64,000 bases of DNA. It comes from Patescibacteria group bacterium. Lineage in GTDB: Bacteria; Patescibacteriota; Patescibacteriia; JBAZBY01. Each line of letters begins with the position of its first letter. The stretch's first letter is position 1. A program made the position numbers and the translations under genes. The DNA lies in assembly GCA_041671225.1 (NCBI GenBank), contig JBAZBY010000001.1:690060-754059 (forward strand). The letters are read 5' to 3'. Shown one piece after another: positions 22,423-39,159 of the stretch. The notes below the pieces were generated by a model. It was not told the origin of the DNA, searched no databases, and saw only the letters and a list, made by a program, of their open reading frames with translations.

Positions 22423-22591
22423 GAAGTTACAAAAGAGCCGTCGCAGATAATCAGCGCCGTCGCAAAAAAAGAAAACGTTCGCTCGTTACATTACACAGGG
22501 GATAAAACACTGGAGTTTTTCTTTGTTACACGTGCGCCGTCGCGAGGCGAGCGCCGTCGCAAAAAAAGTGGATAACCTCCTTGTTCGTGAC

Positions 22592-22665
22592 CTGGCCAGC
22601 ATTGCGTTTCCGTTCTTAACCATTTTCCGCCACCAAAATGGGTCTCTCGGAATCACACTGGCCAG
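22592..22665. repeat. 74-nt element bounded by palindromic CTGGCCAG octamers with an internal hairpin CCATTTT-ccgccacc-AAAATGG, copy a
   Basis: about 50-nt core near-identical to the copy at 23821-23896. Confidence 0.7.
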
Positions 22666-22887
22666 ATCAGGGATGAGGAAGTGCCTCGTCTCGATTGCTC
22701 CAATGTGGAGCAAAGGCGGCACGCACCTTAACAAGCGTGAATAAAGGCTAGACGATACCGTTCAATCCACATAATTGATGCGCGGTTTGGACTCGCGCAT
22801 CCTTCTGGTTCCACATGTTCCGGCAAACTGTACTCCCGTACAGCAAGAGGAGGACGGACCACTTGCAGTAAAACAAAGGAGCATCAC

Positions 22888-23292
22888 ATGCTAACATCCC
22901 CAGCTCCTATCGTTCTCGCAATTCCTGACATACAGCCCGAAGTCCGTTCCACGATCGTCGAACACATCGCGCGGGAAGAGCATGTCAATAAGGAGCGCGC
23001 AGGACGCATCTTCGATGCGCTTCTGCATGTCTTCGCCTTGGCGATGTGCTTCCAGCACAAAGTGTTTCCGCTTGCGCCGAGCATCGGAAGAGCGGAAACG
23101 ACGTTCCAGCAGTTCCCCGTTGCATACCAGGCGTATTGCAGAGCGCTTGGACCAAAGCCGGTGAGGGTGAGAACTGGTTCCTATGAGACCAGCGAGCCCA
23201 GCCCGTTCTTTGGTCCCGAGTACACGATCCAGTTCATGATCGCCAACGGCATCGTTTTCGACGAGGACGTCTGGCGTGAGAAAAAGGAGTAG
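22888..23292 (+). CDS. hypothetical protein, paralog 1 of a tandem pair (134 aa)
   Basis: SD AAGGAG; shares 'R.GR.FDAL.H..A.A..F' and 'F..A..EY..C..LG' blocks with the next gene; no known family. Confidence 0.6.
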   Translation: MLTSPAPIVLAIPDIQPEVRSTIVEHIAREEHVNKERAGRIFDALLHVFALAMCFQHKVFPLAPSIGRAETTFQQFPVAYQAYCRALGPKPVRVRTGSYETSEPSPFFGPEYTIQFMIANGIVFDEDVWREKKE

Positions 23293-23298
23293 AGCGCC

Positions 23299-23724
23299 AT
23301 GCAGACGCCACTTTCGCTGAAACCCCCAGTGGCCATCACTGTCCCGGCGGTGGCCTGGCCCTTCCGTGACGAGCTCATCGACGTGTTCGCAACCCAGGAG
23401 CGCATCTCCCGTTCTCGTTCTACCCGTGTCATCGACGCACTCTTCCACTTCCTTGCTGTGGCCGCGACGTTCCGGGGGCGAAACCTCAGACCCGCGGATG
23501 AGATCTCCGCAGCGTGGATGCTCTTCGTCGCATATACAAAGGAGTACACCGAGTTCTGCGACGAGCTCGGCGGCTACATCCACTTCCGGCCCGCTACCAG
23601 TCCCCGTACCATCGCAACCACCACGCCGGCGGATGCGATCAACCTCATGGAGAAGTTCGAGATCCCGTTCAACAAGATGGTGTGGATGCCGGAGTGCGTA
23701 TCTCCGGAGACGGTCAAGTCCTGA
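23299..23724 (+). CDS. hypothetical protein, paralog 2 of the tandem pair (141 aa)
   Basis: SD AAAAAGGAG; paralogous to 22888-23292. Confidence 0.6.
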   Translation: MQTPLSLKPPVAITVPAVAWPFRDELIDVFATQERISRSRSTRVIDALFHFLAVAATFRGRNLRPADEISAAWMLFVAYTKEYTEFCDELGGYIHFRPATSPRTIATTTPADAINLMEKFEIPFNKMVWMPECVSPETVKS

Positions 23725-23820
23725 TTCACGCAGATAGAGAACAGTAGAGGCTTCGGCCTTTATTGACATAATGGGGAGTGGTGGCGCTGGTGGCTGCTAC
23801 TCCCCGACCTTTTTCGCGAT

Positions 23821-23896
23821 CTGGTCAGCGCATTGTTTCCGTTCTTAACCATTTTCCGCCACCAAAATGGGTCTCTCGGAAGCAGTTCCTGGCCAG
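23821..23896. repeat. 74-nt CTGGYCAG-bounded element, copy b
   Basis: see copy a. Confidence 0.7.
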
Positions 23897-24048
23897 GTCG
23901 GGGGAAAGGAACAGTAACGTTACCCCGATGCCTATTTTCTTTTTTGGGGGCATTATTTTCACCGCATGTTTTATGTTCATCTTCAGCAAGAGACGACGCA
24001 TGAAAAAGCCGAATTCACAATATACGATTTTCATCTGGTGATTTCTTG

Positions 24049-24130
24049 CTTCCCGTCTGGTGGCAACCGGGAGGCCGGAAACTCGTCCAGCTTCTAGCTC
24101 AAGGTGGCTCGCACCTTACATCGGTCGCAG
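24049..24130. promoter_or_regulatory. conserved upstream box (family copy 1): tggcaaccgggaggccggaaactcgtccagcttctagctcaaggtggctcgcaccttacatcggtcg
   Basis: about 80 percent identical over about 70 nt to 33301-33370; partial copies at 36149-36190 and 22718-22745; always 90-220 nt upstream of a start codon. Confidence 0.4.
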
Positions 24131-24160
24131 ACACGCGGCCACAGATAGAGGAGGTACGCA

Positions 24161-24820
24161 ATGTACCGCATACGAAACACGTGGAGTGTTGCGACGTGTT
24201 GGGTCGCGATCCTCTGCATGCTTACCATCCCGTTGCTCTCCGGGTGCTCAGAGGACCACGCGCAGGTCATTGCTCCGCCGCAGGAGCAGACCGCGCCCTC
24301 GGTGCCGGATCAGTACGCACAGTATGAGGCCCAGGGAACGCTGATCCAGCAGTGGATCGATCGCATGGACCCGTACGTCACGCAGAACGCCGACGGCACG
24401 TTCGTCTGCGACTGGCAGGCGTTTCAGCAGGATCTCGCGCGCACCAATCCCCAGATTGCGCTGGCTCTCAACGGCGCCGCCACTCCGGGCAAGGACGCCA
24501 AGGTGATCGTGGAACTGCGCGACGGAATTCCCATCGCCAACAAGGCGCTCAAGGAGCAGCCCGAGGGCATGACGCAGACCGCGTCCACGCGTTGCTACTG
24601 GCGCTGGTGGGGTCGCACCTGCTGCTACACCGGCTGGGATGCTGAAGTTGCCGTATGGACCAATGCCGCCGCGGCTGTCGTGGCGGGCATCGCCGGAGGT
24701 CCGATCGGCGCGGGGGTGGTCGCCTACATCGCGTGGGTAGCTGAACGTCTCACCGATCAGTGTGGTGGGTTCTGCATCAACGCAACGTGGGTTGGCGGCT
24801 TCTGGCTTACCTGTCCGTAG
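24161..24820 (+). CDS. lipoprotein with a Cys/Trp/Gly-rich hydrophobic C-terminal region
   Basis: lipobox 'LLSGC'; C-terminus 'CYWRWWGRTCCYTGW...AAAAVVAGIAGGPIGAGVVAYIAWVA...DQCGGFCINATWVGGFWLTCP', reminiscent of Gly-rich bacteriocin-like peptides. Confidence 0.6.
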   Translation: MYRIRNTWSVATCWVAILCMLTIPLLSGCSEDHAQVIAPPQEQTAPSVPDQYAQYEAQGTLIQQWIDRMDPYVTQNADGTFVCDWQAFQQDLARTNPQIALALNGAATPGKDAKVIVELRDGIPIANKALKEQPEGMTQTASTRCYWRWWGRTCCYTGWDAEVAVWTNAAAAVVAGIAGGPIGAGVVAYIAWVAERLTDQCGGFCINATWVGGFWLTCP

Positions 24821-24906
24821 CTTCGCGCTACACCTCTCTCACGTGCTCGGCGGGCCTCAGGTCTCTCCCGCCGAGCACAATTTTCTCCATTTGCTATCAT
24901 ACATTT

Positions 24907-25206
24907 ATGAACATCACGACAGATATCCTTCCATTCTATATTCTTTTGCTCGCGTTTGCGCCGGCCATAAACCTCCTTGCGCTGTATTTTGTCTTGCGGC
25001 GCAAAGCAAAATTTCAGGATCCAAAACAGGCAGTATTGGAGTTTGTCCGCATTCTTTTTGGTTATGCCATCTACACTGCGCTCATCTTGAATATCATCTT
25101 CCAGTATATGGATTTTCTCTGGTTCATTGCCGTGTATGTCGTCTTACTTGTCCTATGGTATCTCACGGAGCGCATGATCCGGGCGAAGTACGGTATTAAG
25201 GAATAA
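24907..25206 (+). CDS. small 3-TM membrane protein (99 aa)
   Basis: ATG at 24907 (the ORF-track start at 24760 overlaps the preceding gene); hydrophobic helices. Confidence 0.5.
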   Translation: MNITTDILPFYILLLAFAPAINLLALYFVLRRKAKFQDPKQAVLEFVRILFGYAIYTALILNIIFQYMDFLWFIAVYVVLLVLWYLTERMIRAKYGIKE

Positions 25207-25260
25207 TTTTCGAATTCCCCTTAGGAAGAGGAGACCCGCTGGCGGCAGGAAAGGAACAGT

Positions 25261-25665
25261 ATGGACGTGAACAAAGTCACGCTCATCGGGAATCTGGTGC
25301 GGGACCCCGAAGCAAAAGAGACCAAAGGCGGAAACTCCCTTGCAACGTTCAGCGTTGCAACAAACCGCGCATGGCGGGATGCGGAGTCAAAAGAGAAGAA
25401 AGAGGCGGTGGAGTATCACAACGTGATTGCCTGGGGCAGGCTCGCGGAGATCATCAGCGAGTATGTGAAGAAGGGCAATAAAGTGTATGTGGAAGGCCGT
25501 CTGGCCAACCGCAGCTTTGAAGGCAAGGACGGTAAGAAGCGGTATTACACCGATGTGGTTGCAAGCAACCTCATCATGTTGACGCGTAAGCCCGCGGTGA
25601 AGGAGGACACTCCTGCAGCCATGGCGCCTGAAGAAGTGAACGTCGAGGAAGTCGTCGTCGCATAG
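25261..25665 (+). CDS. ssb: single-stranded DNA-binding protein
   Basis: OB-fold 'VTLIGNLVRDPE...TFSVATNRAW...HNVIAWGRLAE...VYVEGRL'; short acidic tail 'EEVVVA'. Confidence 0.85.
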   Translation: MDVNKVTLIGNLVRDPEAKETKGGNSLATFSVATNRAWRDAESKEKKEAVEYHNVIAWGRLAEIISEYVKKGNKVYVEGRLANRSFEGKDGKKRYYTDVVASNLIMLTRKPAVKEDTPAAMAPEEVNVEEVVVA

Positions 25666-25680
25666 AGCGAAACGCAGACG

Positions 25681-25714
25681 AAGGAGCAGCCACGCGGCTG
25701 CTCCTTCCTTCTTC
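25681..25714 (+). terminator. hairpin aaggagcagcc/ggctgctcctt + CCTTCTT after ssb
   Basis: 11-bp stem, 4-nt loop. Confidence 0.5.
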
Positions 25715-25739
25715 AGCGCAACTCCTCTACACTGCATTC

Positions 25740-26630
25740 ATGAAGCGGCTTATTCTCTCTGGGGTATTTTGTGCAGCATTTCTTCTCGGTATCGGGGTTG
25801 CATGGATGCAATGGCGCAGTGTTGAAGACGATGCAATACCGGTTGTTGAACCCTTCACGTATATGTCCCCATGGGTGCCGTATGATGCATATGAAACGCT
25901 GTATCGCACCCAGGTGCAGGAGACAACGCCGGTGGCAACGTATGTTCCGGCTGCCATTGTCAATCATCATCTCCTTGCGTCGGATCTCATCACAAAAACT
26001 CTTGCCGCGCTTTCCACACAGCATCCGTCGGTGATTGTCTTACTTGCTCCGGATCATTTTTCCAAAAGTACAACGCCCCTCTCCACATCGTTGTTTTCCT
26101 GGCATACTGAAGTCGGGGATCTCTCTGTTGCTACCGTACTCGCGGAGCGTCTTGCGGAGGACGATGCGCTTTCCATAAATCCGAATGCATTGGATCATGA
26201 GCACGGCATTGGCAACATCACCACATTCCTCGCAAATGTATTTCCCGGTACGCCCTTCATTCCGGTTATCGTCAGTGAGCATGCAAGCGTTGCGGCAATG
26301 GATGAGTTTGCACAGCGCCTGGATCTCTTACTCCCTGTAGATGCGCTTGTGCTCGGTTCGTTCGATTTCTCTCACGGCAAAACACTTGTGGTGCAACAGG
26401 AGAATGATGCAGTGAGTACAGAAGTTCTTGGGCGCCTTGCCGCAGAGGAGACGAGCGAGCTTGATGTTGATTCCCGCAATGGACTCCGCATGCTGCTGCA
26501 GTTTGCCAGGTTCCGCAACGCTGGCATCTTTGCCCCCATCGGTCATTCCAGCTCAGCCGCGCGCATGAATGATCCGGAAACCACGGAGAACACCAGCTAC
26601 ATCACAGGATATTTCACGGCAGCACCGTAG
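25740..26630 (+). CDS. Memo-like / AmmeMemoRadiSam system protein B family
   Basis: 'LLAPDHFSKST' and 'LDHEHGIGN' motifs resembling the MEMO1 'GPSH' and 'HSHEHS' metal-binding blocks; N-terminal TM anchor. Confidence 0.6.
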   Translation: MKRLILSGVFCAAFLLGIGVAWMQWRSVEDDAIPVVEPFTYMSPWVPYDAYETLYRTQVQETTPVATYVPAAIVNHHLLASDLITKTLAALSTQHPSVIVLLAPDHFSKSTTPLSTSLFSWHTEVGDLSVATVLAERLAEDDALSINPNALDHEHGIGNITTFLANVFPGTPFIPVIVSEHASVAAMDEFAQRLDLLLPVDALVLGSFDFSHGKTLVVQQENDAVSTEVLGRLAAEETSELDVDSRNGLRMLLQFARFRNAGIFAPIGHSSSAARMNDPETTENTSYITGYFTAAP

Positions 26631-26684
26631 CTTTGTGCTGTGACGGCTGCGGGTTTATACTAGAAGCACTTAATTTCAAATTTT

Positions 26685-28424
26685 ATGACAACAAAGATTG
26701 CGCTTCTCGCTGCACTCGGACTCGTAGTGCTTTTTGGTGCCGGTCTCGGTGTGGGGTATGTGCTTTTTGCCGATAATGAGCCTGTTCAGGAGACGGTAAA
26801 CATCAACGGACCCATAAGCGTTGCTGATACCGTCGAGACGAATGAAAATGTGAATCTCGCGCTTGCCGATGAGACGGACGTGAGCCCTTATGAAGAAGAA
26901 ATCACCGTTGATGAAGATATCAAACCGTTTCCGTCCGAGCCCGTGGAGGGGGATGACAGCGTGACGGATATTCCCGCAATGGATATTTTTGATCCGGTGG
27001 CGGAGTTTAATTACGGGCAGTATGAGCGGGAAAACGCGCGTTTTTACAGCGCAGGTACCGTTGAAAGCGGCGCGTATGCCGGTGGAGAAATGGTTCTTCT
27101 GGTATTTTATCCCGAGGGTCCGGTTTTTTATCCGACGATGGCGCGCTTTGTGCGTGACGGCGATGAGTTGACTTTACTTTCCCTGCATTCCTCAGGCTGG
27201 CTGGATATTCTCGACGACAGCAAGTTCACAACGGATTCTCAAACGCTGCTGCCGGAATACAATTATCCGGCGGTTCTGCTCGGGCCGGATCAGCGGCAGA
27301 TCCTCCGCCTCGACACAGATGTGCAGGCCTTCTTTGATCCGGCCGGACTGGAAGTTGCGTTTACCGATGAAACCTGGGGGCCGGTATACCGGGCAAACGG
27401 AAGCAACACCGCGGAGAATATTTATGCCAAGAACGGTTTTTATCTGAACGCGCCGGACGGCACAGTGCGCGTCTACGGGCTTGATGTGGATTTTCAGGAT
27501 GAGAACGATATTCTGAACATCACCTGGAATAACGGCGAACGGAGTTATTGGGCATATTCCATCGGTGATGTGGGCGGCTGCGGATTGCAGAACTATATCT
27601 CCGTGATTGATGACGGATCAGTGGTGATTGAGCGCGACCTGGTGAAAACCGGAACGTCCAATTTTGGTGATGTGATATACGAGTATGCGGATTCCGATGC
27701 CGCATTCCTGCATGATTGGTATGAGAACGGGTATTGGGGGCAATGGAATGACGTGACGCAGGATTTGGAGAAAGATACCTATGAGAATTATCTCGTCATG
27801 CACCCTTTCATTTTCTGGGTGGATCCGTTTGACCGTCTTGTCCGCGCAATGAATAGCGCATTCCTGCCTGCTGCGGAATGCGGCAAGCCGGTTATTTACC
27901 TTTATCCGGATAAGCCCACATCCGTGCAGGTGACCGTTGAGCCAAAAGGAGGGTTCTCATACACCGACCCGGCATATAATGATGGCTGGCAGGTGACCGC
28001 TGATGCTGATGGCCGCCTCTGGAACAGCGACGGTACCGTCTATCCGTATCTCTTTTGGGAAGGTCGGGGAGCCGCACTCTATGACACTCCAGACCGCGGA
28101 TTTGTGGTGGCGCAGCAAGATGTTGACGGGTTCCTGAGCGAAAAACTCACCGCATTGGGCCTCCGCGGACGGGAGATCACGGACTTCAAGGAATTCTGGC
28201 TTCCCCGCATGCAGGAAAAACCGTGGTATTTTGTGACCTTCCTTGGGAATCAGGCGATGGAGACGCTTGCGCCGCTCACGGTCACACCAGCACCAGACAC
28301 AGTGATCCGTGTGCTCATGGACTTTACCGCACTTGATGCGCCGATTTCTGCAGAGCCTTATACCATTCATACGCCGGAGCGCAAAGGATTCACGGTTATT
28401 GAGTGGGGCGGCGTACTGCGGTAG
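26685..28424 (+). CDS. hypothetical exported protein (579 aa)
   Basis: signal anchor 'IALLAALGLVVLFGAGLGVGYVLF'; acidic, Trp/Tyr-rich; no known domain. Confidence 0.6.
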   Translation: MTTKIALLAALGLVVLFGAGLGVGYVLFADNEPVQETVNINGPISVADTVETNENVNLALADETDVSPYEEEITVDEDIKPFPSEPVEGDDSVTDIPAMDIFDPVAEFNYGQYERENARFYSAGTVESGAYAGGEMVLLVFYPEGPVFYPTMARFVRDGDELTLLSLHSSGWLDILDDSKFTTDSQTLLPEYNYPAVLLGPDQRQILRLDTDVQAFFDPAGLEVAFTDETWGPVYRANGSNTAENIYAKNGFYLNAPDGTVRVYGLDVDFQDENDILNITWNNGERSYWAYSIGDVGGCGLQNYISVIDDGSVVIERDLVKTGTSNFGDVIYEYADSDAAFLHDWYENGYWGQWNDVTQDLEKDTYENYLVMHPFIFWVDPFDRLVRAMNSAFLPAAECGKPVIYLYPDKPTSVQVTVEPKGGFSYTDPAYNDGWQVTADADGRLWNSDGTVYPYLFWEGRGAALYDTPDRGFVVAQQDVDGFLSEKLTALGLRGREITDFKEFWLPRMQEKPWYFVTFLGNQAMETLAPLTVTPAPDTVIRVLMDFTALDAPISAEPYTIHTPERKGFTVIEWGGVLR

Positions 28425-28598
28425 GACTCGTGATACTCAAAACGACAACCCGCTCACTCATTGGGCGGGTTTTGGTTTGGCAGAAGTGGATAACTACCAC
28501 GTTCTTTCTCTTGACAGTGCATTCGTCGGGTATACACTTGAACTATCACTGGTGGCGAAGTGCTCATTTTGAGCGCGCCACTCGTTTTATATAAAGAT

Positions 28599-30194
28599 AT
28601 GGGATCAATGAGTAAGAAGCATCTTTACCAGCAACCAGCCGTATTGCTTACTTTGTGCATCGCCGTTGCCTTTTTTATTGCTGCTGTATATTCTGCTCGT
28701 CCAAATAATAAGCAGAATACAAATGAGACCCCTTCAGTCAATGATGTCAGTGTTTCTGAAAATGAAGTTTATAAAGTTTTTCCATATGCGGAATACTTTG
28801 ATCCTACTGTCGCCGAGCGCATTGTTTTTCAGAACATTCGTCTGCTCTTACCTCAGGGATATGAGTATTCCTTGAAAGCTGGGAGTGTACCGGTATTACG
28901 TATGTATCCGACAGAAGATCCAACGGCAGTAGCACAGCTTACACTCAGTGAAAAACTGCCGGAGCACGCCGTGGATGGATTCGCGACATCTCAGGATAAT
29001 TTTTGTTCTAGAGATGAGAGAAATTTTGGCCTAACGTGGTTTCGGGGGATTTTAGAGAGGAATATTGTTCCTTATCAATTTGCGTGGGAGCGGAATGATG
29101 TTCCGGATAAGTATATCTGGGCAGGGAAGTCTAGCGGGCAGACCTATGTGTATTCTTTTTCAGACACGGAATATGCTGGTTACTTCGTAGCTATTGGTGA
29201 ACAGATCCAGCCTGGAGGAGTAGCATTCGTTGACGTGACCGATGAATCTCTTGGAGTGAAATATACATTTCCTGAAAATTGGATAAAAGATGAAGAAAAC
29301 ATTCCGGATCGATTTCTTAGTGATATTGATTCTTATCGGTATCGGCATGTTGCTTCACATGGGTTTTTGTCTCCGGAATGGAAGTCGCGCGGTCATTCAG
29401 CCGTTTGCACTTTGTCAGTATTTGAAAATGCGGATGGCTTATCGCCGGAAGCGTGGGCAGAGAGCAGCGGTATTTATTCGGAAAAATATTGGTCTCGTGA
29501 TCGATCAGTGGGAGAGGTCAATAATTTGGATGCATATTTTGTTATTGAATGGGGGCAAATGCAAGGTGAGGAAGCAATGACGGGGACTTCAGATTCTCGG
29601 TATCTTGCATTCGCTGGTCACATATTGCGCTTTTCGGAATATACAGGTTTAACACAGGACTTCTCAGATGAGGATAATGATCTACTTCAGAGCGAGATAT
29701 CTCTTTGCGATGAAATACGTGATTCATTCCAGGACACGAAACGCGGAGTGATCAATGATGGCGGTTTACAGCGCTACCATAATGAACGTTTCAGGACGAG
29801 CTTTGTTATTTCCAAGGATCTGCGTTTATTGCGCGATAACGGACATGAAGCTGTTCTCATACTAGCGTCAGAGAATATTGGCGCGGCTGGCGATTATGAA
29901 GGGCCAATGATACGCATTAATTGGTATCGTACGGATGAAACTCCTCGCGCGTGGCTTGAAAAGAAATTCAATGAAACAGATCCTCAGGTAGTTGATTCGT
30001 TAGTAGATTTTTCTTCTGGAACGATCAATGGTGTGCAGTATGATCTTGAATACGAATATGGTGCAATGCACACATTACGTGAAAGAGTATTTCGCTCTGG
30101 TAAATTTATAGTGGATGTACTTAACCTCGACACACAGAATGTCGAGTTAACCTCGGGTACAGAACAGATTTTAGATACGTTTCAAATACTTTAA
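28599..30194 (+). CDS. hypothetical exported protein (about 530 aa)
   Basis: signal anchor 'AVLLTLCIAVAFFIAAVYSA'; ATG at 28599. Confidence 0.55.
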   Translation: MGSMSKKHLYQQPAVLLTLCIAVAFFIAAVYSARPNNKQNTNETPSVNDVSVSENEVYKVFPYAEYFDPTVAERIVFQNIRLLLPQGYEYSLKAGSVPVLRMYPTEDPTAVAQLTLSEKLPEHAVDGFATSQDNFCSRDERNFGLTWFRGILERNIVPYQFAWERNDVPDKYIWAGKSSGQTYVYSFSDTEYAGYFVAIGEQIQPGGVAFVDVTDESLGVKYTFPENWIKDEENIPDRFLSDIDSYRYRHVASHGFLSPEWKSRGHSAVCTLSVFENADGLSPEAWAESSGIYSEKYWSRDRSVGEVNNLDAYFVIEWGQMQGEEAMTGTSDSRYLAFAGHILRFSEYTGLTQDFSDEDNDLLQSEISLCDEIRDSFQDTKRGVINDGGLQRYHNERFRTSFVISKDLRLLRDNGHEAVLILASENIGAAGDYEGPMIRINWYRTDETPRAWLEKKFNETDPQVVDSLVDFSSGTINGVQYDLEYEYGAMHTLRERVFRSGKFIVDVLNLDTQNVELTSGTEQILDTFQIL

Positions 30195-30196
30195 AT

Positions 30197-31300
30197 ATGC
30201 AATCAACACCCGTCAGTCCAAAAAAACCAATGAGCCCGATGCCATGGATTGTCCTTGGTATTGTGATTGTTCTTGCTGCCGTAGGTTTGTGGTATGTGGT
30301 TGGGCAGGGGAATGGGGCGGATGAGAATGCGAATATTGCTGTGGTAAATACCAATACGACAGGCAATCAAAATGTGAGCATAGTCAATATTAATGCAACA
30401 GTTGATACGAGTGGGTGGGTGACACACACTAATACGCAACTTGGTTTTACGATAAAACATCCTCAAAACTGGACAGCAAGAATTGTTGGTAGTGAACCGG
30501 AATTAAATCAACAGGAGGCGGATTCGGTCTTGTCAGAGGGGCAGTGTGCCGAGGGCGAGGTATGCGAAATATCAGAGGGGTACTGTACTATTACCATTGG
30601 TCAACTGCCATATCCCTTCACTTCAGAAAAAAATATAGACCTCGTTCTTGATGATTTGAGGACGCGTGCGCGCTCCCCAATCGTAGAGGTGACATTCCCA
30701 AATTTTTCCGGATATGTTACCGACACCGCGGCAAGTCCCCCTGATGAAAATGGTGATCAACTACTGGGGAAATATTATCTTCTTCAGCTTAATAATCAAG
30801 TTCTCCACGCCATATTGGGCACGGGTTATTTGCGAGAGGATTGTAGGAATGCACTGCACGATATTCTTTCAACATTCAGTACAGACTTAGTAGTCGGCTT
30901 CGATGCCGGTGACTTGGTGACATATATCAATCAGGAGCATCAATATTCTTTTCAGTACCCCCCAACACTAACCGTTCAGGACTATACGAGTTTAAGCTTA
31001 TCAGACAACGATAAGCTTGTTAGTCGCATCTTAGTTCCCGTTGCGGAAGGCGACTATTTCATCGAAGTTACAAAATATAGCGGTACGCTTGACGAAGTGA
31101 AAGAAGCACTTCGCAATCGTACTGCAAATGCGATATGGTTGCCTGGTACTCTTGATATGCAGGAGGCAGAATACACACGGCGGTCATATAATCTTGATGA
31201 GTCATTTTTTGAGTACATATATCTTGTCTCACGAGAGAAGTACGTTTTTGTGGTTTCAGTTTTTGATCAGAGCATCCTTAATACTTTTCATTTTCTGTAA
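30197..31300 (+). CDS. hypothetical exported protein (367 aa)
   Basis: signal anchor 'WIVLGIVIVLAAVGLWYVV'. Confidence 0.55.
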   Translation: MQSTPVSPKKPMSPMPWIVLGIVIVLAAVGLWYVVGQGNGADENANIAVVNTNTTGNQNVSIVNINATVDTSGWVTHTNTQLGFTIKHPQNWTARIVGSEPELNQQEADSVLSEGQCAEGEVCEISEGYCTITIGQLPYPFTSEKNIDLVLDDLRTRARSPIVEVTFPNFSGYVTDTAASPPDENGDQLLGKYYLLQLNNQVLHAILGTGYLREDCRNALHDILSTFSTDLVVGFDAGDLVTYINQEHQYSFQYPPTLTVQDYTSLSLSDNDKLVSRILVPVAEGDYFIEVTKYSGTLDEVKEALRNRTANAIWLPGTLDMQEAEYTRRSYNLDESFFEYIYLVSREKYVFVVSVFDQSILNTFHFL

Positions 31301-31378
31301 TCTGTGTGGTCTATCTTCCTTCCGCGTTGAACATTTCAACTCGGAAGTGAGGTAGTTGTTCTCTGACAACTCTTCCGG

Positions 31379-33181
31379 GTGTTTACGCCCAGAAAGGCGG
31401 ATGCAGTGTTGCGCATTCTGATCACGGTCGTTGCGCTGGTTCTGTCAGCTGGAACTGCACAAGCGGCCAAGGTTCTCTGGTTTCCCTTCGACTACCCGAT
31501 CTCCGTCACCTGTGGGTTTGGGTGCTACACAGTACCCATCCATCATGACGGTGTGGATTACTCCTGCCCTGAAGGGACCTCCCTCTACGCCGCGATTGGT
31601 GGAACGGTAAAGAAGGTGGTGAACTCCGTATCGGGCCAGGTGTGCAGTTCACCGAATTTCGGCAACTACGTGCTCATTGAGAACACGCAGTATGGCGTTC
31701 AGGTGATCGAGGCACACATGCTGGCAGGCTCCATTACCGTTGTTGAAGGGCAGGTGATCACCGCAGGCCAGTACATCGGCAAATCCAGCAATTCTGGATA
31801 CACGATGACGCTGGTCAACGGGGTCTACAAATGCGGATATGGCGGAGGTCATCACCTTCACCTTGAGACGCGCGTTCTCATCAACGGCAGGTGGGTTGCG
31901 GTGGATCCCTATATCTATAATGGAGGGCTCTGGACCAGCCCCCTCCAGTACGGGAACGATTCCAACTGCACCCTCGCTTCCTCCTCCGAGGCGAAGTCCC
32001 AGATCACGGCGTGCCGGAACAGGAACACCTGGCTCGGCAGCGCGACCTCGGGATTCCACCAGTGGAAGCCCTCGGGCGGCAACGGCAAGTGGGTCTACAT
32101 CATCGATTACCAGAAGGGGTCCGTGGTGTTTGACGCTCTTGGCGGTGCGGAGAAGGCATATGCCGTGAGTAGCTACATGCTCGGTTGTTGGGCCGCGGAT
32201 CACGGTTGCGCTGGTTCTCGGCTCGGTTGTCCGATCACTGAACGCTACGCCTGGAACGGTGGGCTGCGCATGGACTGGAACTACGGGTATACATTTGAGA
32301 AGGCCGGCATTTCCTGCGGTCCCATCAAGTGGGGTACGGCGGGCTATTACGGCCCTGGCACGTTTGCGGGCTACGCCATCGATTGCCAGGCGACGTACAA
32401 GTTCGCTGCGTGCTATGCGCGTCATGGCGTTGGGAAGCTCGGGTATCCCGCGTCGGGAAATGGAATTCTGCCGTACGTGCATACCATCGGCAGCAATCCC
32501 AACATCCTCGCGCAGGATTTCAAGGGTGACCAGTGGGACAATGTTGTGCTGCTCTACGACCGTGAAGCGCCGCAGTATGCGAGCATCGTCGCATCCTTCT
32601 GCCCGTCACCCAACACGCCGGATCAGGCAAGCGAACTTCATGGCGGTTTCCGCGGCTACTGGGAAGCGAACGGTCGCTTCAGCACCATCGGCGTTCCGTT
32701 CACGGATGAAGTGCCGGTTTTCGGTAAGCCGTGGATCGTCTACCAGCGGTTCATCCGGCGATCCGGAAGCAACTGGGTCGCGTGCGAGCTCCGTTACTAC
32801 CCGAATGGCAGTGTGTCGAAAGCCACGCTGTTCACGAAGGCGGTTACCGTAAGCTCTGTCGACGTTGAAATTGACATCGTGGACGACACGCAGGAAAGCC
32901 CTGCGCCTCGCCCGGTGCTTCTCCTCAGCCCCAACCCGACGGCAGGCAGCAGCACCATCCAGTTCTCCCTTCCCACCGAGGGACAGGTTGCACTGCAGGT
33001 GTTTGATATCGCTGGCCGGCTGGTGGCCACGCTCCTGGACGAAACGCGTCCAAGCGGAGAATACCAGATTTCCTGGGATGGAAAGGACGGACAGGGCAAT
33101 GCGGCGGCAAGCGGAATCTACTTCGTTCGTCTCGCAACTCCTTCCTTCCAGACCACCAAGCGTCTCGTGGTACTCCGTTAG
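31379..33181 (+). CDS. M23 (LytM-type) metallopeptidase with a C-terminal T9SS-type sorting domain
   Basis: signal peptide; 'HHDGVDY...GNYVLIEN...GHHLHLE' (HxxxD/HxH); large Trp/Gly/Tyr-rich middle region; last about 85 aa 'LLLSPNPTAGSSTIQFSLPTEGQVALQVFDIAGRLVATLLDE...GEYQISWDGKDGQGNAAASGIYFVRLATPSFQTTKRLVVLR' match the Por/T9SS C-terminal domain pattern; GTG start. Confidence 0.75.
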   Translation: MFTPRKADAVLRILITVVALVLSAGTAQAAKVLWFPFDYPISVTCGFGCYTVPIHHDGVDYSCPEGTSLYAAIGGTVKKVVNSVSGQVCSSPNFGNYVLIENTQYGVQVIEAHMLAGSITVVEGQVITAGQYIGKSSNSGYTMTLVNGVYKCGYGGGHHLHLETRVLINGRWVAVDPYIYNGGLWTSPLQYGNDSNCTLASSSEAKSQITACRNRNTWLGSATSGFHQWKPSGGNGKWVYIIDYQKGSVVFDALGGAEKAYAVSSYMLGCWAADHGCAGSRLGCPITERYAWNGGLRMDWNYGYTFEKAGISCGPIKWGTAGYYGPGTFAGYAIDCQATYKFAACYARHGVGKLGYPASGNGILPYVHTIGSNPNILAQDFKGDQWDNVVLLYDREAPQYASIVASFCPSPNTPDQASELHGGFRGYWEANGRFSTIGVPFTDEVPVFGKPWIVYQRFIRRSGSNWVACELRYYPNGSVSKATLFTKAVTVSSVDVEIDIVDDTQESPAPRPVLLLSPNPTAGSSTIQFSLPTEGQVALQVFDIAGRLVATLLDETRPSGEYQISWDGKDGQGNAAASGIYFVRLATPSFQTTKRLVVLR

Positions 33182-33282
33182 ATCCGCCAGCGCCCCTTGG
33201 CGCAGGCAGAAGCTCCTTCACTCTCAACCCCGGGGTGTGCCGTGACCTTTCCAGGTCTCTGGCCACGACGCACCCCCCTTTT

Positions 33283-33370
33283 TTCCGCTCTCCCGAGCGG
33301 TGGCAGCCGGGAGGTCAGAAATTCGTCTGGTTTCTAGCATAAGGTGGCTTGCACCTTGACAGCGGTCGTC
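33283..33370. promoter_or_regulatory. conserved upstream box (family copy 2): ttccgctctcccgagcggtggcagccgggaggtcagaaattcgtctggtttctagcataaggtggcttgcaccttgacagcggtcg
   Basis: see 24049-24130; contains TTGACA. Confidence 0.4.
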
Positions 33371-33407
33371 TCTTTTGGAGGCGGCCAAGAACAGAAGGAG
33401 ATAGACG

Positions 33408-34079
33408 ATGAAGCGGTTTATCCTGCTCATCACGCTCATCGTCGTTTCTTTGGTGTTCGCGGCAGCGCCCATCAACGCGCAGCAGCCCATCCAAGAGACG
33501 ACCTGGGGGAGGATCAAAGTTCAGTATGGGGAGCAGACCCATTTGGATCGGCCCAATACTCTGGATCCGAAAAGCATCGGAGCATACACGGCAATCGCCT
33601 GGCCGTTCCCCTGGGAGAGCCCGAACGACTGGCGCGGCGATGAAGGTGATCGTACGGACGGTGGTTGGTATAACTCGCGATGTGCCGGCTGGATTCCGAC
33701 GCACAGCGGTGCCGATCACTATGCTCGCGACCTTTCGCGGAGGTACAAGTCCACGGCTGGCGCGCGCGTCTACGCCGGACTTACCGCGAAGGTCGTGAAA
33801 ATCGAGAAGTATGGCGCCGGGTGGAGCGTCGTACTGTACTATCCGAAACAGCGACTGTGCATACGCTACGCCCACATGGACGGCATCGTCGTGAACGTTG
33901 GTTGGACTGTGTCCATGCGGCAGTACCTTGGATACGTTCTTGACCAGGGGAGTGGGTCTCACCTGCATCTGGTCGTTTATGAGAATGTGCCGGAGGGTTC
34001 AAACGGCTTCCCCGCGTATATTCCGAGCGTCTGTAACAGGGACACGTGGCACGCCTGCCGGGTCTACTTCTTCTCCTGA
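33408..34079 (+). CDS. secreted M23-family peptidase (small)
   Basis: signal peptide 'LLITLIVVSLVFAAAPINAQ'; 'HSGADHYARD' (HxxxD) and 'GSHLHLV' (HxH). Confidence 0.6.
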   Translation: MKRFILLITLIVVSLVFAAAPINAQQPIQETTWGRIKVQYGEQTHLDRPNTLDPKSIGAYTAIAWPFPWESPNDWRGDEGDRTDGGWYNSRCAGWIPTHSGADHYARDLSRRYKSTAGARVYAGLTAKVVKIEKYGAGWSVVLYYPKQRLCIRYAHMDGIVVNVGWTVSMRQYLGYVLDQGSGSHLHLVVYENVPEGSNGFPAYIPSVCNRDTWHACRVYFFS

Positions 34080-34153
34080 TGATCACGCGGGCGCCTCGGA
34101 AGCAAGGTCTTATCTTCTGAGGCGCCCGCACATAATTCCTACGATATATTTCT

Positions 34154-34738
34154 ATGAATCATATATTCAAAAAAATCAGCACGATACTTTTTTTTGTCAT
34201 TCTTTTATTTATTGCCACATGGTTTGTTTTTCAGGATCAAAGTAAGAATACAGGGGGAAAAAAGGACAGGTGGTCATCAGATGGTCTTGGTTTTCGGGTT
34301 CTGCTTCCAGAAACACTAGTTTTTTTTGACACATCCTCGCGTCAAATGGATGATGGCGAGATTCAAACCGTATCCTTCATTATTGAAGGGAGTGCAGACC
34401 CTGCCGATCCGTATGTCCCGCCCTCGTTAATGGTTTCCGTTCTTCCGAGTATGGGGCGCACTGCATCATTTTGGGCTGATCGCAAGATTTTTGGGGGATA
34501 CCCAGAGGGTACCGTTGTGTCTGATCGCATAGCCTCCTCAATTGCGAGAGAGGATTGTGTACAGCAAAAGGAGGGCATCAACGCAGGCATGCCAACTGAA
34601 CAAACCCTGATGCATGTTCATTATTGCGTTCACGATGATCAACTGTATATGCTTGGAATTCTTGCGAACACGGAATCTATGTTTTCCACTTTTGAAAATC
34701 TTGAGAAGGACTTCGTTCGGGATTTTGAATTCCTCTAG
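34154..34738 (+). CDS. hypothetical membrane-anchored protein
   Basis: signal anchor; no motif. Confidence 0.5.
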   Translation: MNHIFKKISTILFFVILLFIATWFVFQDQSKNTGGKKDRWSSDGLGFRVLLPETLVFFDTSSRQMDDGEIQTVSFIIEGSADPADPYVPPSLMVSVLPSMGRTASFWADRKIFGGYPEGTVVSDRIASSIAREDCVQQKEGINAGMPTEQTLMHVHYCVHDDQLYMLGILANTESMFSTFENLEKDFVRDFEFL

Positions 34739-34785
34739 TTTTTAACACCTGTCCCCGAAGCAATTTCTGAACTATACTTTATCCT

Positions 34786-36147
34786 ATGAATAAGAACATC
34801 ATTCTTGTCAGCCTGGCAGGCATTATTGCTGTCGTGACACTGGGTATTTTTATGATGTCTTTTACGAGGACAGAAGAAGGCAACAATACAACAACGAACC
34901 AGACCCAGCGTGTGAACGCCGCTGAGACGACAAAACGCATTCCAAATACTTTGTTCGAAAATGAGGGTGCGCTTGTGAAGGTGAATTTTAAGGGTGAAGA
35001 TTATTTGTTTGCAACAAGTGTCTATAATATGTTACGTCCCGGATCAACAGGCTCCGAAGAACTTATCCTGCAAGGTGAAGAGTGGCAGCCGATTTTGTAT
35101 TCATCGCTTCATGCGAATGATGTTCTTTTTCCCGGAGGACCACTGCTCCGTTTTGATCAAAGAACGCAGGAGATCTCCGAAACCGTCTCTCGCGATGAGT
35201 ATTTTCTTCGTGTGTATAACATAGAAAATGGCAACCTTGAAAATACTATTAGCTATCACACGGGAGATACCATTTTGACCTCGGGGGTTGAGATTGAAGG
35301 CGACGTTAAATATACGAATGTTTCCAGCGACTATCTCGTTGATTTTGCGGTGGATGCTTCGAACAAAAAGATCTATATGCTCGTCGCGATAGATGGTTCC
35401 AGCGGTGCGCTCTGGGGTGATTCAACATCAGAATCTTCTGTGGAAATTATTGAGGTTGACGTCGTGAATGGTACCGCTGAGAGTATTGTCTCATTCACAA
35501 GTGAAAAAGCTACTCTCGTGCATGAGGATGAGGCCGATACATGGTTATTGCCAACAGAGATTCATTATGTTGAAGGAGCGGTGCTTCTTACATGGAGAAA
35601 TAAACTGGAACGTGTCGATCTTCTTACTGGAAACCGTCAGGACATTCTTTCCTTGACGCAGGAAGATTGGGATGCAAACCGACAACTATCCGTTGAGAGT
35701 AACCCAACTGGCACAGCGGCCATTATCTTTGATTCAGTGGGGTATATGACGAATGAGGAAGAAAGTTCAATTCGATTATTCAACGCAGCTGACCGTACTC
35801 TCTCGGTCATTGGCCCGCTTTCTGCTGATATTGTACAACAACATCCTATTTGGAATGACTCAGGTACGCAGATGGTTACGACATCAAATACGAGTTCCAC
35901 CATCTATCAAATATCACTCGAAAATAATACACTGACATCGCTTGATAACATGGTCGTTGAGAGGGTTTATGATTGGCTTCCGTCAGGCGAGTTATTGGTA
36001 AGTATTTTTGATGTGTACGAGGATCCTGATGAGATTCCGGAAACGGACAGTAACTATCGTTCACAATTTTATCTCTACAATTTGGAAACAGGGCTTGGAG
36101 CGTCGTTAGGGAATTATCGCAGCCCGCATTATTTCGGCAGGGTATAG
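34786..36147 (+). CDS. hypothetical exported protein (453 aa)
   Basis: signal anchor 'IILVSLAGIIAVVTLGIFMM'. Confidence 0.55.
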   Translation: MNKNIILVSLAGIIAVVTLGIFMMSFTRTEEGNNTTTNQTQRVNAAETTKRIPNTLFENEGALVKVNFKGEDYLFATSVYNMLRPGSTGSEELILQGEEWQPILYSSLHANDVLFPGGPLLRFDQRTQEISETVSRDEYFLRVYNIENGNLENTISYHTGDTILTSGVEIEGDVKYTNVSSDYLVDFAVDASNKKIYMLVAIDGSSGALWGDSTSESSVEIIEVDVVNGTAESIVSFTSEKATLVHEDEADTWLLPTEIHYVEGAVLLTWRNKLERVDLLTGNRQDILSLTQEDWDANRQLSVESNPTGTAAIIFDSVGYMTNEEESSIRLFNAADRTLSVIGPLSADIVQQHPIWNDSGTQMVTTSNTSSTIYQISLENNTLTSLDNMVVERVYDWLPSGELLVSIFDVYEDPDEIPETDSNYRSQFYLYNLETGLGASLGNYRSPHYFGRV

Positions 36148-36148
36148 C

Positions 36149-36190
36149 CTTCCGCTCTCCCTCCTAGCAGCCGGGAGGTCAGAAAGGCAA
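36149..36190. promoter_or_regulatory. partial copy (5' half) of the conserved upstream box: ttccgctctccctcctagcagccgggaggtcagaaaggcaatg
   Basis: matches 33283-33325. Confidence 0.35.
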
Positions 36191-36224
36191 TGTTTGAATG
36201 CGCTTTTGCGGTATTTTGGTTTTG

Positions 36225-36253
36225 TTGCGAATCCTAGCGGGAAGTGGTATAAT
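36225..36253 (+). promoter_or_regulatory. sigma70-like promoter: TTGCGA, 17-nt spacer, extended -10 TGgTATAAT
   Basis: about 115 nt upstream of the sensor-domain paralog array. Confidence 0.5.
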
Positions 36254-36368
36254 TTTTTTCAGAGAACAACTGAATTTTCTATACTCATGGAACCAGTAAT
36301 TGGGGCGGAGGGTTCCGGACTCACTTATTTCAATACCTATCCAAGGCCATAGCGGCTTTGTTTTTTGT

Positions 36369-37037
36369 ATGGATTTGATTACCGCATTACTTTTTCTTGT
36401 CGGTATCGCCGATGTGGTGATTGGCGTATATATTGGCATACAAAAACCAGTGACCACCATCCGTAAATCGTACACATGGGTGGTGTTTGGAACAGCTGGG
36501 TGGGTATTGGCGAATGCTGTTTTTCGACTTATGAGCACGGATGCCGCTGTTGAAATTGCGGAACGCCTCACGTTCTTATTCGGCACCGTAGCGACATCAG
36601 CCTTTCTCTACTTCTCTTTCGTTTTCCCATATACAAAGCGTCCCCTGAAGCAATGGATGTTTTTGTATGTAGTTTTAAGTGCTGTCGTCATTTGTATTTT
36701 TGCCTTATTTACAGAATTTTTTCTTGTTAGAAGCGTTTCAGTTGGATCACATGAAAGTATCAGTACCTATGGACAATTCTACGCAGTATTTTTTATTTGG
36801 TTTATTGGTACTTGGATATGGAGTATTGCGAATCTTCTATTGAAGTATAAGGATGCAGATGCGTTTTCTCGTTGGCAAATACGCATGATGCTGTTTGCGG
36901 TTCCGTTAACAATTATTCTCGCAATTCTTTTTGATCTCATTGCGCCGTATCTCCAGATTGCTGGCACAGGGTGGTTCGCTTCAGTATCATCGGTTATTTG
37001 GCTGGGTTTTACTGTTTATATTGTGATGAAACGATGA
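36369..37037 (+). CDS. stand-alone polytopic membrane sensor-domain protein, paralog A (ends ...YIVMKR)
   Basis: about 7 TM helices; 'DAFSRWQIRMM' block; homologous to the N-terminal membrane domain of the histidine kinase at 40191; stop overlaps the next start (ATGA). Confidence 0.65.
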   Translation: MDLITALLFLVGIADVVIGVYIGIQKPVTTIRKSYTWVVFGTAGWVLANAVFRLMSTDAAVEIAERLTFLFGTVATSAFLYFSFVFPYTKRPLKQWMFLYVVLSAVVICIFALFTEFFLVRSVSVGSHESISTYGQFYAVFFIWFIGTWIWSIANLLLKYKDADAFSRWQIRMMLFAVPLTIILAILFDLIAPYLQIAGTGWFASVSSVIWLGFTVYIVMKR

Positions 37038-38376: not shown

Positions 38377-38440
38377 TTTATTTACGACAGCAATAAGCAC
38401 GTCTAATTTCTACTTGATTAGTTTTCCCAGGTACTGACAA

Positions 38441-39142: not shown

Positions 39143-39159
39143 GATTTACGAGGGATACC

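Follow-up and report, generated by a model that had tools for sequence, protein, structure and literature searches.

We consider it about evenly probable that a sequence box common to two exported-protein operons of a Patescibacteria MAG (1.03-Mb genome) is a clade-restricted, ~120-nt cis-acting mRNA leader that would act on translation, and not a DNA operator or an alternative-sigma promoter. Both operons lie in the 64-kb stretch of DNA that was analysed, called the window below.

The first-pass annotation had described near-identical boxes ahead of a Cys-rich lipoprotein gene (box A) and a secreted M23 peptidase gene (box B). We confirmed these two copies, and both consensus strings quoted there were present in them; by chance, one window would be expected to hold 0.02 matches to the 5' string and 0.32 to the 3' string. 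The boxes are real but had been drawn too short, as the similarity takes in a fourth hairpin and the Shine-Dalgarno (SD) site on the 3' side and reaches the ATG (Table 1). Between their 5' boundary and the start codon, A and B are identical at 88 of the 117 aligned bases (75%). The similarity ends at the ATG, and the encoded proteins are unrelated. The M23 peptidase gene is the first of the three genes for exported proteins that form a small operon (33408-36147).

A covariance model of the 5' module found exactly three copies in the window (A, 49 bits; B, 63 bits; C, 23.5 bits) and no copy in a further 20 kb of flanking DNA of this genome. Related contigs carry one or two copies each, all of them sense-oriented and gene-proximal, and the viral contigs searched gave no match. 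The gene 5' of the box is always on the same strand, and the box is always intercistronic. In A, L058 and L052, extended P1 comes within 0–3 nt of an upstream stop codon: box A follows the stop of a conserved 37-aa ORF at 0 nt, and the L052 box follows a stop at 3 nt. No upstream ORF abuts B or L063. The supposedly fixed distance from the start codon is approximate only: the P1 core lies 112 nt (A) or 119 nt (B) from the ATG, and in the relatives this distance ranges from 117 to about 170 nt. No reading frame in the box stays open across the lineages.

Table 1. Positions of the boxes, their parts and the neighbouring terminator-like hairpin in the window
Feature	Position	Strand	Remarks
Box A, full leader	24042..24160	+	between stop of 37-aa ORF (TGA 24039-24041) and Cys-rich lipoprotein ATG (24161); 136 bits with model R2
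A extended P1 hairpin	24042..24081	+	13/14 pairs; -19.2 kcal/mol
A extended P1 strands	5' 24042-24055, 3' 24068-24081	+	cores CUUCCCG (24049-24055) and CGGGAGG
A P1 loop	24056-24067	+	12 nt, with GGUGGC
A P2 hairpin	24075..24090	+	CCGGA/UCCAG; overlaps outer 3' strand of extended P1
A pyrimidine linker	24091..24096	+	CUUCUA; predicted partner UAGAGG of SD region (MFE folds)
A P3 hairpin	24101..24117	+	AAGGUG-GCUCG-CACCUU
A P4 hairpin	24123..24140	+	GGUCGC-AGACAC-GCGGCC
A SD site	24148..24154	+	GAGGAGG; 6 nt ahead of ATG 24161
Terminator-like conserved hairpin and U-run	33232..33284	+	between 600-aa M23/Por_Secre_tail gene and box B
Box B, full leader	33282..33407	+	precedes secreted M23 peptidase gene, ATG 33408; 151.6 bits with model R2
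B extended P1	33282..33321	+	5' strand 33282-33295, 3' strand 33308-33321; 12/14 pairs
B P1 loop	33296-33307	+	AGCGGUGGCAGC
B P2 hairpin	33315..33330	+	UCAGA/UCUGG; A-U in B versus G-C in L048 orthologue
B UCGUCUG-G-UUUCU segment	33323..33335	+	predicted partner GGAGA-UAGACGA, 33397-33408 (MFE folds)
B P3 hairpin	33341..33357	+	AAGGUG-GCUUG-CACCUU
B P4 hairpin	33364..33386	+	GGUCGUCUC-UUUUG-GAGGCGGCC; 9 bp, 3 bp longer than A, complementarity kept
Box C, decayed 5' half	36148..36185	+	P1 arms intact, loop damaged by 3-nt deletion; 23.5 bits
Box D, decayed copy	~22662..22765	+	P1 3' strand, then P3-like hairpin (22713-22729), then pseudo start

The box was found upstream of the orthologues of both genes in relatives with 48–83% protein identity (L048, L049/L063, L052, L054, L057 and L058), and full copies are kept before orthologous genes even at 48–56% protein identity. 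Box A and its orthologous copy in L058 are 91% identical, compared to 72% for the coding sequences; for B and its L048 orthologue the corresponding values are 90% and 81%. As judged from these identities, the box was shown to be under stronger purifying selection than the genes downstream. The M23 operon locus is syntenic among the lineages. The data thus support the earlier proposal of a shared, selected cis element before exported-protein genes; the DNA-site or alternative-sigma mechanism proposed with it found no support.

All seven distinct full-length sequences, which represent about five lineages, have four hairpins (P1–P4) in the same order before the SD site. P1 combines a CUCCCG/CGGGAG core with a conserved loop containing GGUGGC. 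Among the seven sequences, P3 is built from three unrelated stems (AAGGUG/CACCUU, UUACUCCA/UGGAGUAA and CUGGUCAG/UUGGUCAG) and P4 from three distinct stem types, one of which occurs in several length variants; in the distant lineages both are swapped for unrelated hairpins. One pair of P2 is C-G, U-G or G-U and another is G-C or A-U, and compensatory variants of the P2 of box A are present in B, L048 and L052. Pairs with G-U on the + strand also occur, for example the U-G in P4 of all sequences with the GGUCG/CGGCC stem (all except L052 and L054). Between orthologous pairs, substitutions were observed in 3 of 92 paired columns versus 16 of 98 unpaired columns (Fisher p=0.003). Pairing is preserved by each of the three changes in paired columns; two of these changes together are a single A-U to G-C swap in P2.

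The covariation check suggested in the first-pass annotation gave an outcome that differed with the alignment. It was positive for a seven-sequence, helix-only alignment that was hand-built around the proposed helices and is therefore biased towards them: 94% of its cells pair (75% in shuffles) and 15 pairs are changed on both sides (9.0 in shuffles), neither value being reached in any of 500 shuffles. Slid controls of this alignment gave 40–55% pairing. With the four easily aligned sequences alone, covariation was not significant (126/500 shuffles). As there are only ~7 distinct sequences and the scan covered 84 kb, the covariation support is modest, and so are the folding z-scores of the whole leader (-1.9 and -2.2). 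An RNA-level element is favoured by the fact that P3 and P4 keep the ability to form hairpins and not their sequence, together with the intercistronic position of the box and the lack of a sigma-70-like site and of the sigma-54 -12 GC.

In the MFE folds, the linker pairs with the SD region in A, L058, B and L063, and the predicted masking in B spans the SD site through the A of the AUG (SD unpaired probability 0.04–0.08). In L052 and L054 the folds have the SD site masked by a local CUCUUU-GAAA-AAGGAG hairpin. The mean unpaired probability of the SD site is 0.04–0.33 across six leaders (L054 excluded). Values of 0.27 (A) and 0.08 (B) compare with a median of 0.42 for genes of the window, a noisy control with a wide spread (n=29); the predicted masking is thus not clearly stronger than that of other window genes, and A appears unremarkable. 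Two alternative pairings are also predicted, P1 versus GGGAGG:linker, and linker:SD.

We propose that the box DNA would give rise to a structured intercistronic 5' leader, common to the two exported-protein operons in a narrow Patescibacteria clade, with translation initiation as its likely target. The leader would carry two anti-SD-like pyrimidine tracts, the CUCCC of the P1 5' strand and the YUUCU linker between P2 and P3, and one SD mimic, the GGGAGG of the P1 3' strand. Since the linker is predicted to sit on the true SD site and the start region when P1 is formed, the default state would be repressed. Opening of P1 would allow GGGAGG to capture the linker, and the ribosome-binding site would be freed. 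Two candidates for opening P1 are a ribosome finishing translation of the upstream ORF (the ORF stop adjoins P1 in A, L058 and L052) and a factor that binds the GGUGGC loop.

Control at the DNA level is a rather unlikely alternative. CTCCCG-N12-CGGGAG would then be the operator of a dimeric regulator, possibly with two GGTGGC motifs 44 bp apart, or the box would be a non-canonical alternative-sigma promoter of a small secreted-protein regulon. The P1 core shows no covariation and can be counted as an invariant perfect palindrome (with a U-U mismatch in L052 and L054), and it fits a DNA inverted repeat equally well. GGTGGC occurs twice in each box at the fixed 44-bp spacing, and in three lineages the M23 operon has partial copies on both sides, an arrangement also possible for auxiliary operators. 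However, the GGTGGC at the palindrome centre is conserved yet asymmetric, which is unusual for a dimer operator, and a DNA site would have no need of P3 and P4 hairpins kept with unrelated sequences. The compensatory swap in P2 and the location of box A, immediately behind a conserved small ORF within an apparent operon, also speak against DNA-level control.

A sigma-70 scan for TTGACA-like and TATAAT-like hexamers 16–18 nt apart upstream of a gene found no + strand site in 24000-24160 and 33180-33407, and the same scan found a site at 36225-36253. A sigma-54 promoter (-24 TGGCAC and -12 TTGCW, the invariant GG and GC being separated by 10 nt) was rejected on reading the sequence: P3 reads TGGCTY-GCACC-TT, and where GC is required at -12, box B has GA and box A has AC. 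An ECF-like GAAAC runs straight into TCGTC without the 16–17 nt spacer. No connection of the box with the kinases or the response regulator of the window was found, so the suggested control by the orphan two-component system was not borne out.

Box B and the L054 box directly follow terminator-like hairpins, with no sigma-70-like promoter in between. The U-run of the hairpin before B is at the same time the outer 5' strand of extended P1 of B, and the intergenic stretch that holds it is 93% identical to L048. Either transcription reads through this hairpin to box B or the box holds an unrecognised promoter; a promoter inside the box, as DNA-level control would allow, would explain the expression of both B and L054. 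The box itself was rejected as an intrinsic terminator or attenuator, as a U-run follows none of P1–P4 and the terminator-like hairpin is outside box B, upstream of it.

An mRNA leader, the reading that we prefer, was compared with the known RNA families. Rfam 15 at the gathering threshold matched RNase P and a tRNA alone in the whole window. Permissive E-value searches of 22500-36500, 23750-24175 and 33170-33425 gave no + strand overlap with the boxes, the sole overlap, at the 5' edge of box B, being a - strand flg-Rhizobiales match of 19 bits against a threshold of 55. With regard to a riboswitch, the leaders keep helices with compensatory changes and have alternative pairings in the predicted folds; no junction or pocket is evident in this small set of sequences, and a peptidase and a lipoprotein as gene products point to no particular ligand.

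The partial copies bear on a different reading. The 5' half-copy reported near 36149 is genuine, though damaged (box C). It is adjacent to the sensor-paralog array, as had been described, but belongs as a decaying remnant to the 3' end of the M23 operon, where it starts 1 nt past the stop codon of the final gene; the 7TM array is separated from it by a promoter-like site of its own, TTGCGA-17-TATAAT with TG (36225-36253, a 10/12 site). The orthologue of C in L048 (5867-5913) has an intact P1 and is located 13 nt after a stop codon. The reported 3' partial copy, box D, is weaker than described: its 3' hairpin has 2 mismatches, and both covariance models, R1 and R2, missed it in the window scan. 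Only 3 of 500 shuffles equalled or beat its score in a gapped local alignment with B over 22662-22737, and its pseudo start AAAGGCTAGACGATA corresponds to AAGGAGATAGACGATG in B; from the alignment, we read D as a decayed copy. A second repeat (22579-22700 and 23808-23930) is found upstream of D and A, respectively. This places the A/D pair within a larger duplicated segment, as the first-pass annotation had allowed for; the same does not hold for B.

It is fairly improbable that the box is a REP-like, low-copy intergenic palindromic repeat spread by local duplication and gene conversion, in which P1 would at most protect or end the upstream transcript and the start-proximal part would be a copied ribosome-binding region without a switch. 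Such a repeat would account for the P1-only copies at gene 3' ends (C and its L048 orthologue), for the duplication history seen in C, D and a 24-nt fragment downstream in L063, and for the position of D and A behind the second repeat. The 5' part of the box forms direct repeats on either side of the M23 operon in three lineages, homogenised within each genome, and the lineage-specific variants common to the upstream and downstream copies imply gene conversion. This reading is opposed by the full copies before distant orthologues, which are better conserved than the coding sequences, and by the avoidance of the stems by substitutions. The three copies in the 84 kb scanned (about 8% of the genome), all within 14 kb, do not look like a dispersed family. 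The downstream copies have decayed at different sites in different lineages, which argues against their being the functional unit, and we propose that C and D arose by local duplication and are now decaying, rather than being working regulators.

The leader is unlikely to represent a new, Patescibacteria-specific class of riboregulator, in which a switch between SD mimic and anti-SD would couple the expression of the exported proteins (M23 peptidase, Cys-rich lipoprotein), which might act on the cell wall or on a host, to a signal. It would be opened by a ribosome on the abutting small ORF, or by a trans-acting partner recognising the GGUGGC loop. The neighbouring ~100-nt hairpin RNA encoded by the second repeat is a candidate partner: the sequence of its apical loop, CCGCCACC, complements GGUGGC, and it is 100% identical over the 60 nt available in a relative.

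It is very unlikely that the hairpin-bearing direct repeats around the M23 operon mark the ends of a cassette that can be mobilised or excised, like integron attC sites, IS200/IS605-type ends or att sites, with the full box as a junction, because there is no recombinase or transposase domain in the flanked genes and no recombinase domain beside them, the operon is syntenic among lineages, no partner copy was found downstream of box A, the 3' arm of the hairpin is missing from the downstream copy of L063 and viral contigs do not match.

The two-operon leader is real but rare, evolves like an RNA of four hairpins, matches no described RNA family and probably controls translation. Patescibacteria have very small genomes with few recognisable regulators, and their lifestyle is largely episymbiotic; our literature search found no cis-regulatory RNA described for them. 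A conserved leader that the Cys-rich lipoprotein gene shares with the M23 operon would point to a small group of jointly regulated surface or secreted proteins in such an organism, and would provide a concrete RNA for metatranscriptomics, structure probing and reporter fusions. Should it be just a locally duplicated leader, its value is limited to a better annotation of the clade.

Structured leaders upstream of cell-wall hydrolase genes are the ydaO/c-di-AMP riboswitch, the NLPC-P60 motif and the Peptidase-S11 motif. Like these, the box is a conserved multi-hairpin non-coding element on the sense strand, directly before genes for an M23 hydrolase, envelope or exported proteins, and it ends at the ribosome-binding site. 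It differs in that neither copy, A or B, scores above noise against any Rfam family; it is a row of hairpins and not a multi-stem junction with a conserved ligand pocket, it suggests no ligand, and it was seen in a handful of Patescibacteria contigs only.

The predicted pairing of YUUCU with the SD site (GGAGA or GGAGG) and the start region, partly through G-U pairs, resembles fourU/ROSE-type RNA thermometers, and the upstream ORF stop at the hairpin foot in several copies resembles translational-coupling hairpins. Compared to such SD-masking leaders, the box contains three further hairpins that are conserved, as is its GGUGGC loop, and its P1 pairs an SD mimic with an anti-SD; its masking is a prediction, not clearly stronger than in other genes, and B and L063 do without the abutting ORF. 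With REP/BIME elements it shares repeated imperfect palindromes between same-strand genes, some at 3' ends, and signs of gene conversion. It differs from them in its very low copy number (3 in 84 kb), in having the palindrome fused to 80 nt of conserved 3' sequence that reach to the start codon, and in the conservation of its copies at orthologous positions across diverged lineages.

The first-pass annotation had proposed conserved boxes before the Cys-rich lipoprotein gene (box A) and the M23 peptidase gene (box B). Both are real; 88 of 117 aligned bases (75%) are identical between them. Their position was correct, but their extent had been drawn too short, as the similarity has a sharp 5' edge and continues up to the start codon, where it ends; the encoded proteins are unrelated. 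The two consensus strings were exact in A and B, while the 5' string had one mismatch in box C, a half-copy before the 7TM sensor-paralogue array, and the 3' string had two mismatches in box D. Per window, 0.02 matches to the 5' string and 0.32 to the 3' string are expected by chance. A covariance model of the 5' module (R1) detected three copies in the window, A (49 bits), B (63 bits) and C (23.5 bits), and beyond these no score above noise; it found none in the 10 kb flanking each side in the same assembly. Box D was missed by both R1 and a second model (R2). We read D as a decayed copy, because just 3 of 500 shuffles did as well as the gapped alignment of its 22662-22737 region to B. Across the whole window, the GGTGGC motif showed no enrichment (26 occurrences on the + strand and 10 on the - strand).

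Coordinates of the boxes, of the elements of the box B leader and of neighbouring features (window positions unless a contig is named)
Feature	Sequence	Position	Strand	Remark
Box A		24042-24160		before the lipoprotein gene (24161)
Box B		33282-33407		before the M23 peptidase gene (33408)
Box C		36148-36185		5' half-copy
Box D		~22662-22765		decayed copy
Box B, extended P1	UUUCCGCUCUCCCG with CGGGAGGUCAGAAA	33282-33295 with 33308-33321	+	12-nt loop nnnGGUGGCnnn
Box B, P2	UCAGA/UCUGG	33315-33319 with 33326-33330	+	
Box B, pyrimidine linker	UUUCU	33331-33335	+	
Box B, P3	AAGGUG/CACCUU	33341-33357	+	
Box B, P4	GGUCGUCUC/GAGGCGGCC	33364-33386	+	
Box B, Shine-Dalgarno site	GGAGA	33397-33401	+	then ATG at 33408
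M23 operon, window		boxes B and C		upstream full box and downstream fragment
M23 operon, L048		3879 and 5867		upstream full box and downstream fragment
M23 operon, L063		9806 and 11905		upstream full box and downstream fragment
37-aa ORF	MPIFFFGGIIFTACFMFIFSKRRRMKKPNSQYTIFIW	23928-24041	+	unannotated
Second repeat		22579-22700 and 23808-23930	+	
Short hairpin	GGGGAGU[GGUGGCGCUGGUGGCUGCU]ACUCCCC	23772-23816	+	then a U-run
Possible extended -10	TGACATAAT	23764-23772		
Paralogous small genes		22888-23724		134 and 141 aa
7TM array		36300-42983		region of three tandem genes and the ORFs that follow them
Radical-SAM/SPASM genes, L063		14383-16599		with a 73-aa ORF
Direct repeat		17128-17251 and 18541-18664		124 nt, 94% identity
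RNase P RNA gene and repeat		59009-59462; 58882-58990 and 59123-59238		98-100% identical stretches

Relatives were found via homologues of the two proteins encoded downstream. The box was present upstream of the M23 orthologues on contigs L048 (83% identity), L049/L063 (56%), L052 and L054 (48%), and of the Cys-rich protein orthologues on L058 (55%) and L057 (52%; 5' half lost at the contig end). It was not found upstream of the M23 orthologues on L050 (52% identity) and L053 (51%), and the element is therefore patchy. Scanning the contigs of GTDB species genomes other than the source species with GCARCCGGGAGGYCRGAAA gave 44 single matches in unrelated phyla, about the chance number, none of which had the 3' hairpin. 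A degenerate P1 pattern run on JGI metagenome contigs, again outside the source species, yielded a true relative, L054, plus two chance matches; nothing was found in the viral contigs scanned. The box is conserved better than the genes that follow it, with identities of 91% for the box and 72% for the CDS between A and L058, and of 90% and 81% between B and L048. A leader-peptide reading was rejected; the box is non-coding, because every frame has stop codons in some lineage.

Four successive hairpins (P1 to P4), with a pyrimidine linker between P2 and P3, occurred in the same order in all seven distinct full-length sequences, which represent about five lineages. The P1 core was invariant except in L052 and L054, which have a U-U mismatch. 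P2 showed compensatory variation (C-G, U-G and G-U at one pair; G-C and A-U at another), and the stem sequences of P3 were of three unrelated kinds. P4 also had three distinct stem types: GGUCG/CGGCC, with an inner-stem extension of variable length; the L052 stem CGGGGAGA/UCUCCCCG; and the 10-bp variant of L054.

Comparison of the sequences within two orthologous pairs showed changes in 16 of 98 unpaired columns versus 3 of 92 paired ones (Fisher p=0.003). All three paired-column changes keep pairing, and two of them make up one A-U to G-C swap. Formal covariation on the four easily aligned sequences was not significant (126 of 500 shuffles). In P2 and P3 the R2 alignment could not be relied on for distant copies, and a hand-made alignment of the helix strands of seven sequences was used instead. 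In this alignment, which leans towards the proposed helices because it was built around them, 94% of cells pair versus 75% in shuffles, and 15 pairs changed on both sides versus 9.0. None of the 500 shuffles reached either value, and slid controls paired at 40-55%. The folding z-scores of the whole leaders were modest (-1.9 and -2.2). We conclude that the box is a real, selected cis element that probably acts at the RNA level, and we hold with moderate confidence that it is an RNA leader.

A DNA operator or promoter appears unlikely. No sigma-70-like site was found in or just before A or B by a consensus scan that gave a strong site downstream of C. The alternative-sigma promoter suggested earlier was not supported either: the sigma-54 reading was rejected as the TGGC of P3 lacks the -12 GC and the spacing is wrong, and the ECF-type reading on spacing and a missing -10 element. 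The box lay behind a same-strand gene in every case. In A and L058 a hydrophobic 37-aa ORF ends with its stop codon directly before the box; in L052 the box starts 3 nt past a stop codon, and in L063 40 nt past a 98-aa ORF; in B and L048 it is preceded by a conserved hairpin with a U-run. The 37-aa ORF showed protein-level conservation in L058 (74-187). The genes downstream encode exported proteins: that of A a lipoprotein with an LSGC lipobox, and those of the B operon an M23 peptidase that carries a signal peptide, plus two proteins anchored in the membrane at their N-termini.

The box might instead be a palindromic repeat that was duplicated and has no regulatory switch. Three lineages carry the full box ahead of the M23 operon and a fragment of the box's 5' part behind the operon. 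Each of these fragments has the variants of the copy upstream of its operon (window, GGTCAGAAA; L048, GGCCGGAAA; L063, CCGCCCTCCCGCGCGG), and their damage differs by lineage, with the loop affected in the window and the 3' arm in L063. We read them as duplication remnants that gene conversion has kept alike, rather than as elements regulating the 7TM sensor paralogues. The control box assigned earlier to this array was not upheld; C is a damaged remnant, and the array has its own promoter-like site. A and D each lie downstream of a copy of a second repeat, and the A/D pair is therefore part of a larger duplicated block. Given the better conservation of the box than of its genes, we consider it improbable that the element is such a repeat and nothing else. 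That it marks a cassette boundary, as its copies on both sides of the M23 operon could suggest, is very improbable.

The second repeat is non-coding and conserved (copies 87% identical), and could be an independent RNA element. Each copy forms one long, irregular hairpin (~100 nt), with z-scores of -3.8 and -4.7 on the + strand; on the - strand copy 2 reaches only -0.7. It had no match in Rfam; the 60 nt available in L058 were 100% identical, next to a small ORF at ~65%. Its apical loop, CCGCCACC, is the complement of the GGUGGC motif of the box. Pairing between the box and this RNA was rejected, as whole-molecule duplex energies were no better than those of shuffles (31 to 181 of 300); only 6-7 bp of loop are left as a candidate contact. 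Directly 5' of the second copy is a short hairpin with two GGUGGC motifs in its loop, and a possible extended -10 lies at 23764-23772. Between the copies are two adjacent paralogous small genes, one with a weak PF27765 match.

The genes of the 7TM array code for the N-terminal 7TM domain of histidine kinases (PF16927) and for no other kinase domain; the gene ends overlap and the C-termini are conserved. Three ORFs come after the array: one of 233 aa, a membrane ORF of 344 aa, and one of 930 aa that looks like a complete 7TM sensor kinase. In L063 the same array precedes an ORF with Autoind_synth/FeeM matches, and between it and the M23 operon a 73-aa ORF and two radical-SAM/SPASM genes look like a peptide-modification cluster. 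Elsewhere in the window, a direct repeat has its copies 1.4 kb apart, and two stretches of a large insertion in the RNase P RNA gene recur ~240 nt upstream, just outside the gene.

For the RNA leader, folding suggested a switch on translation. Two tracts are anti-Shine-Dalgarno-like (CUCCC of the P1 5' strand and YUUCU of the linker), and GGGAGG of the P1 3' strand mimics a Shine-Dalgarno site. In MFE folds with P1 formed, the genuine Shine-Dalgarno site and the start region are paired with the linker and with the 3' portion of P2. This linker pairing was predicted in A, L058, B (12 pairs, to the A of AUG) and L063 (11 pairs, of different sequence); in L052 and L054 a local CUCUUU-GAAA-AAGGAG hairpin masks the site instead. 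When the P1 5' strand was unavailable, GGGAGG paired with the linker, and the Shine-Dalgarno site was predicted to be largely or wholly unpaired in A, L058 and L048. RNAalifold gave the GGAG:linker pairing together with CUCCC:Shine-Dalgarno pairing. The leader would be off by default and opened by a trigger. Candidates are a ribosome that ends translation at the base of P1, which is plausible only for copies with an abutting ORF, and a factor that binds the GGUGGC loop. We offer this mechanism as a hypothesis, because the predicted masking was not clearly above that of other window genes in a noisy comparison.

No Rfam family matched the box and no description of it was found in the literature; it belongs to no described family. 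It is of a known general kind, new as a family and narrow in distribution. Its nearest known counterparts are the structured leaders found before cell-wall hydrolase genes, leaders that act by Shine-Dalgarno masking or coupling, and REP-type palindromes; the box would work most like the first two.
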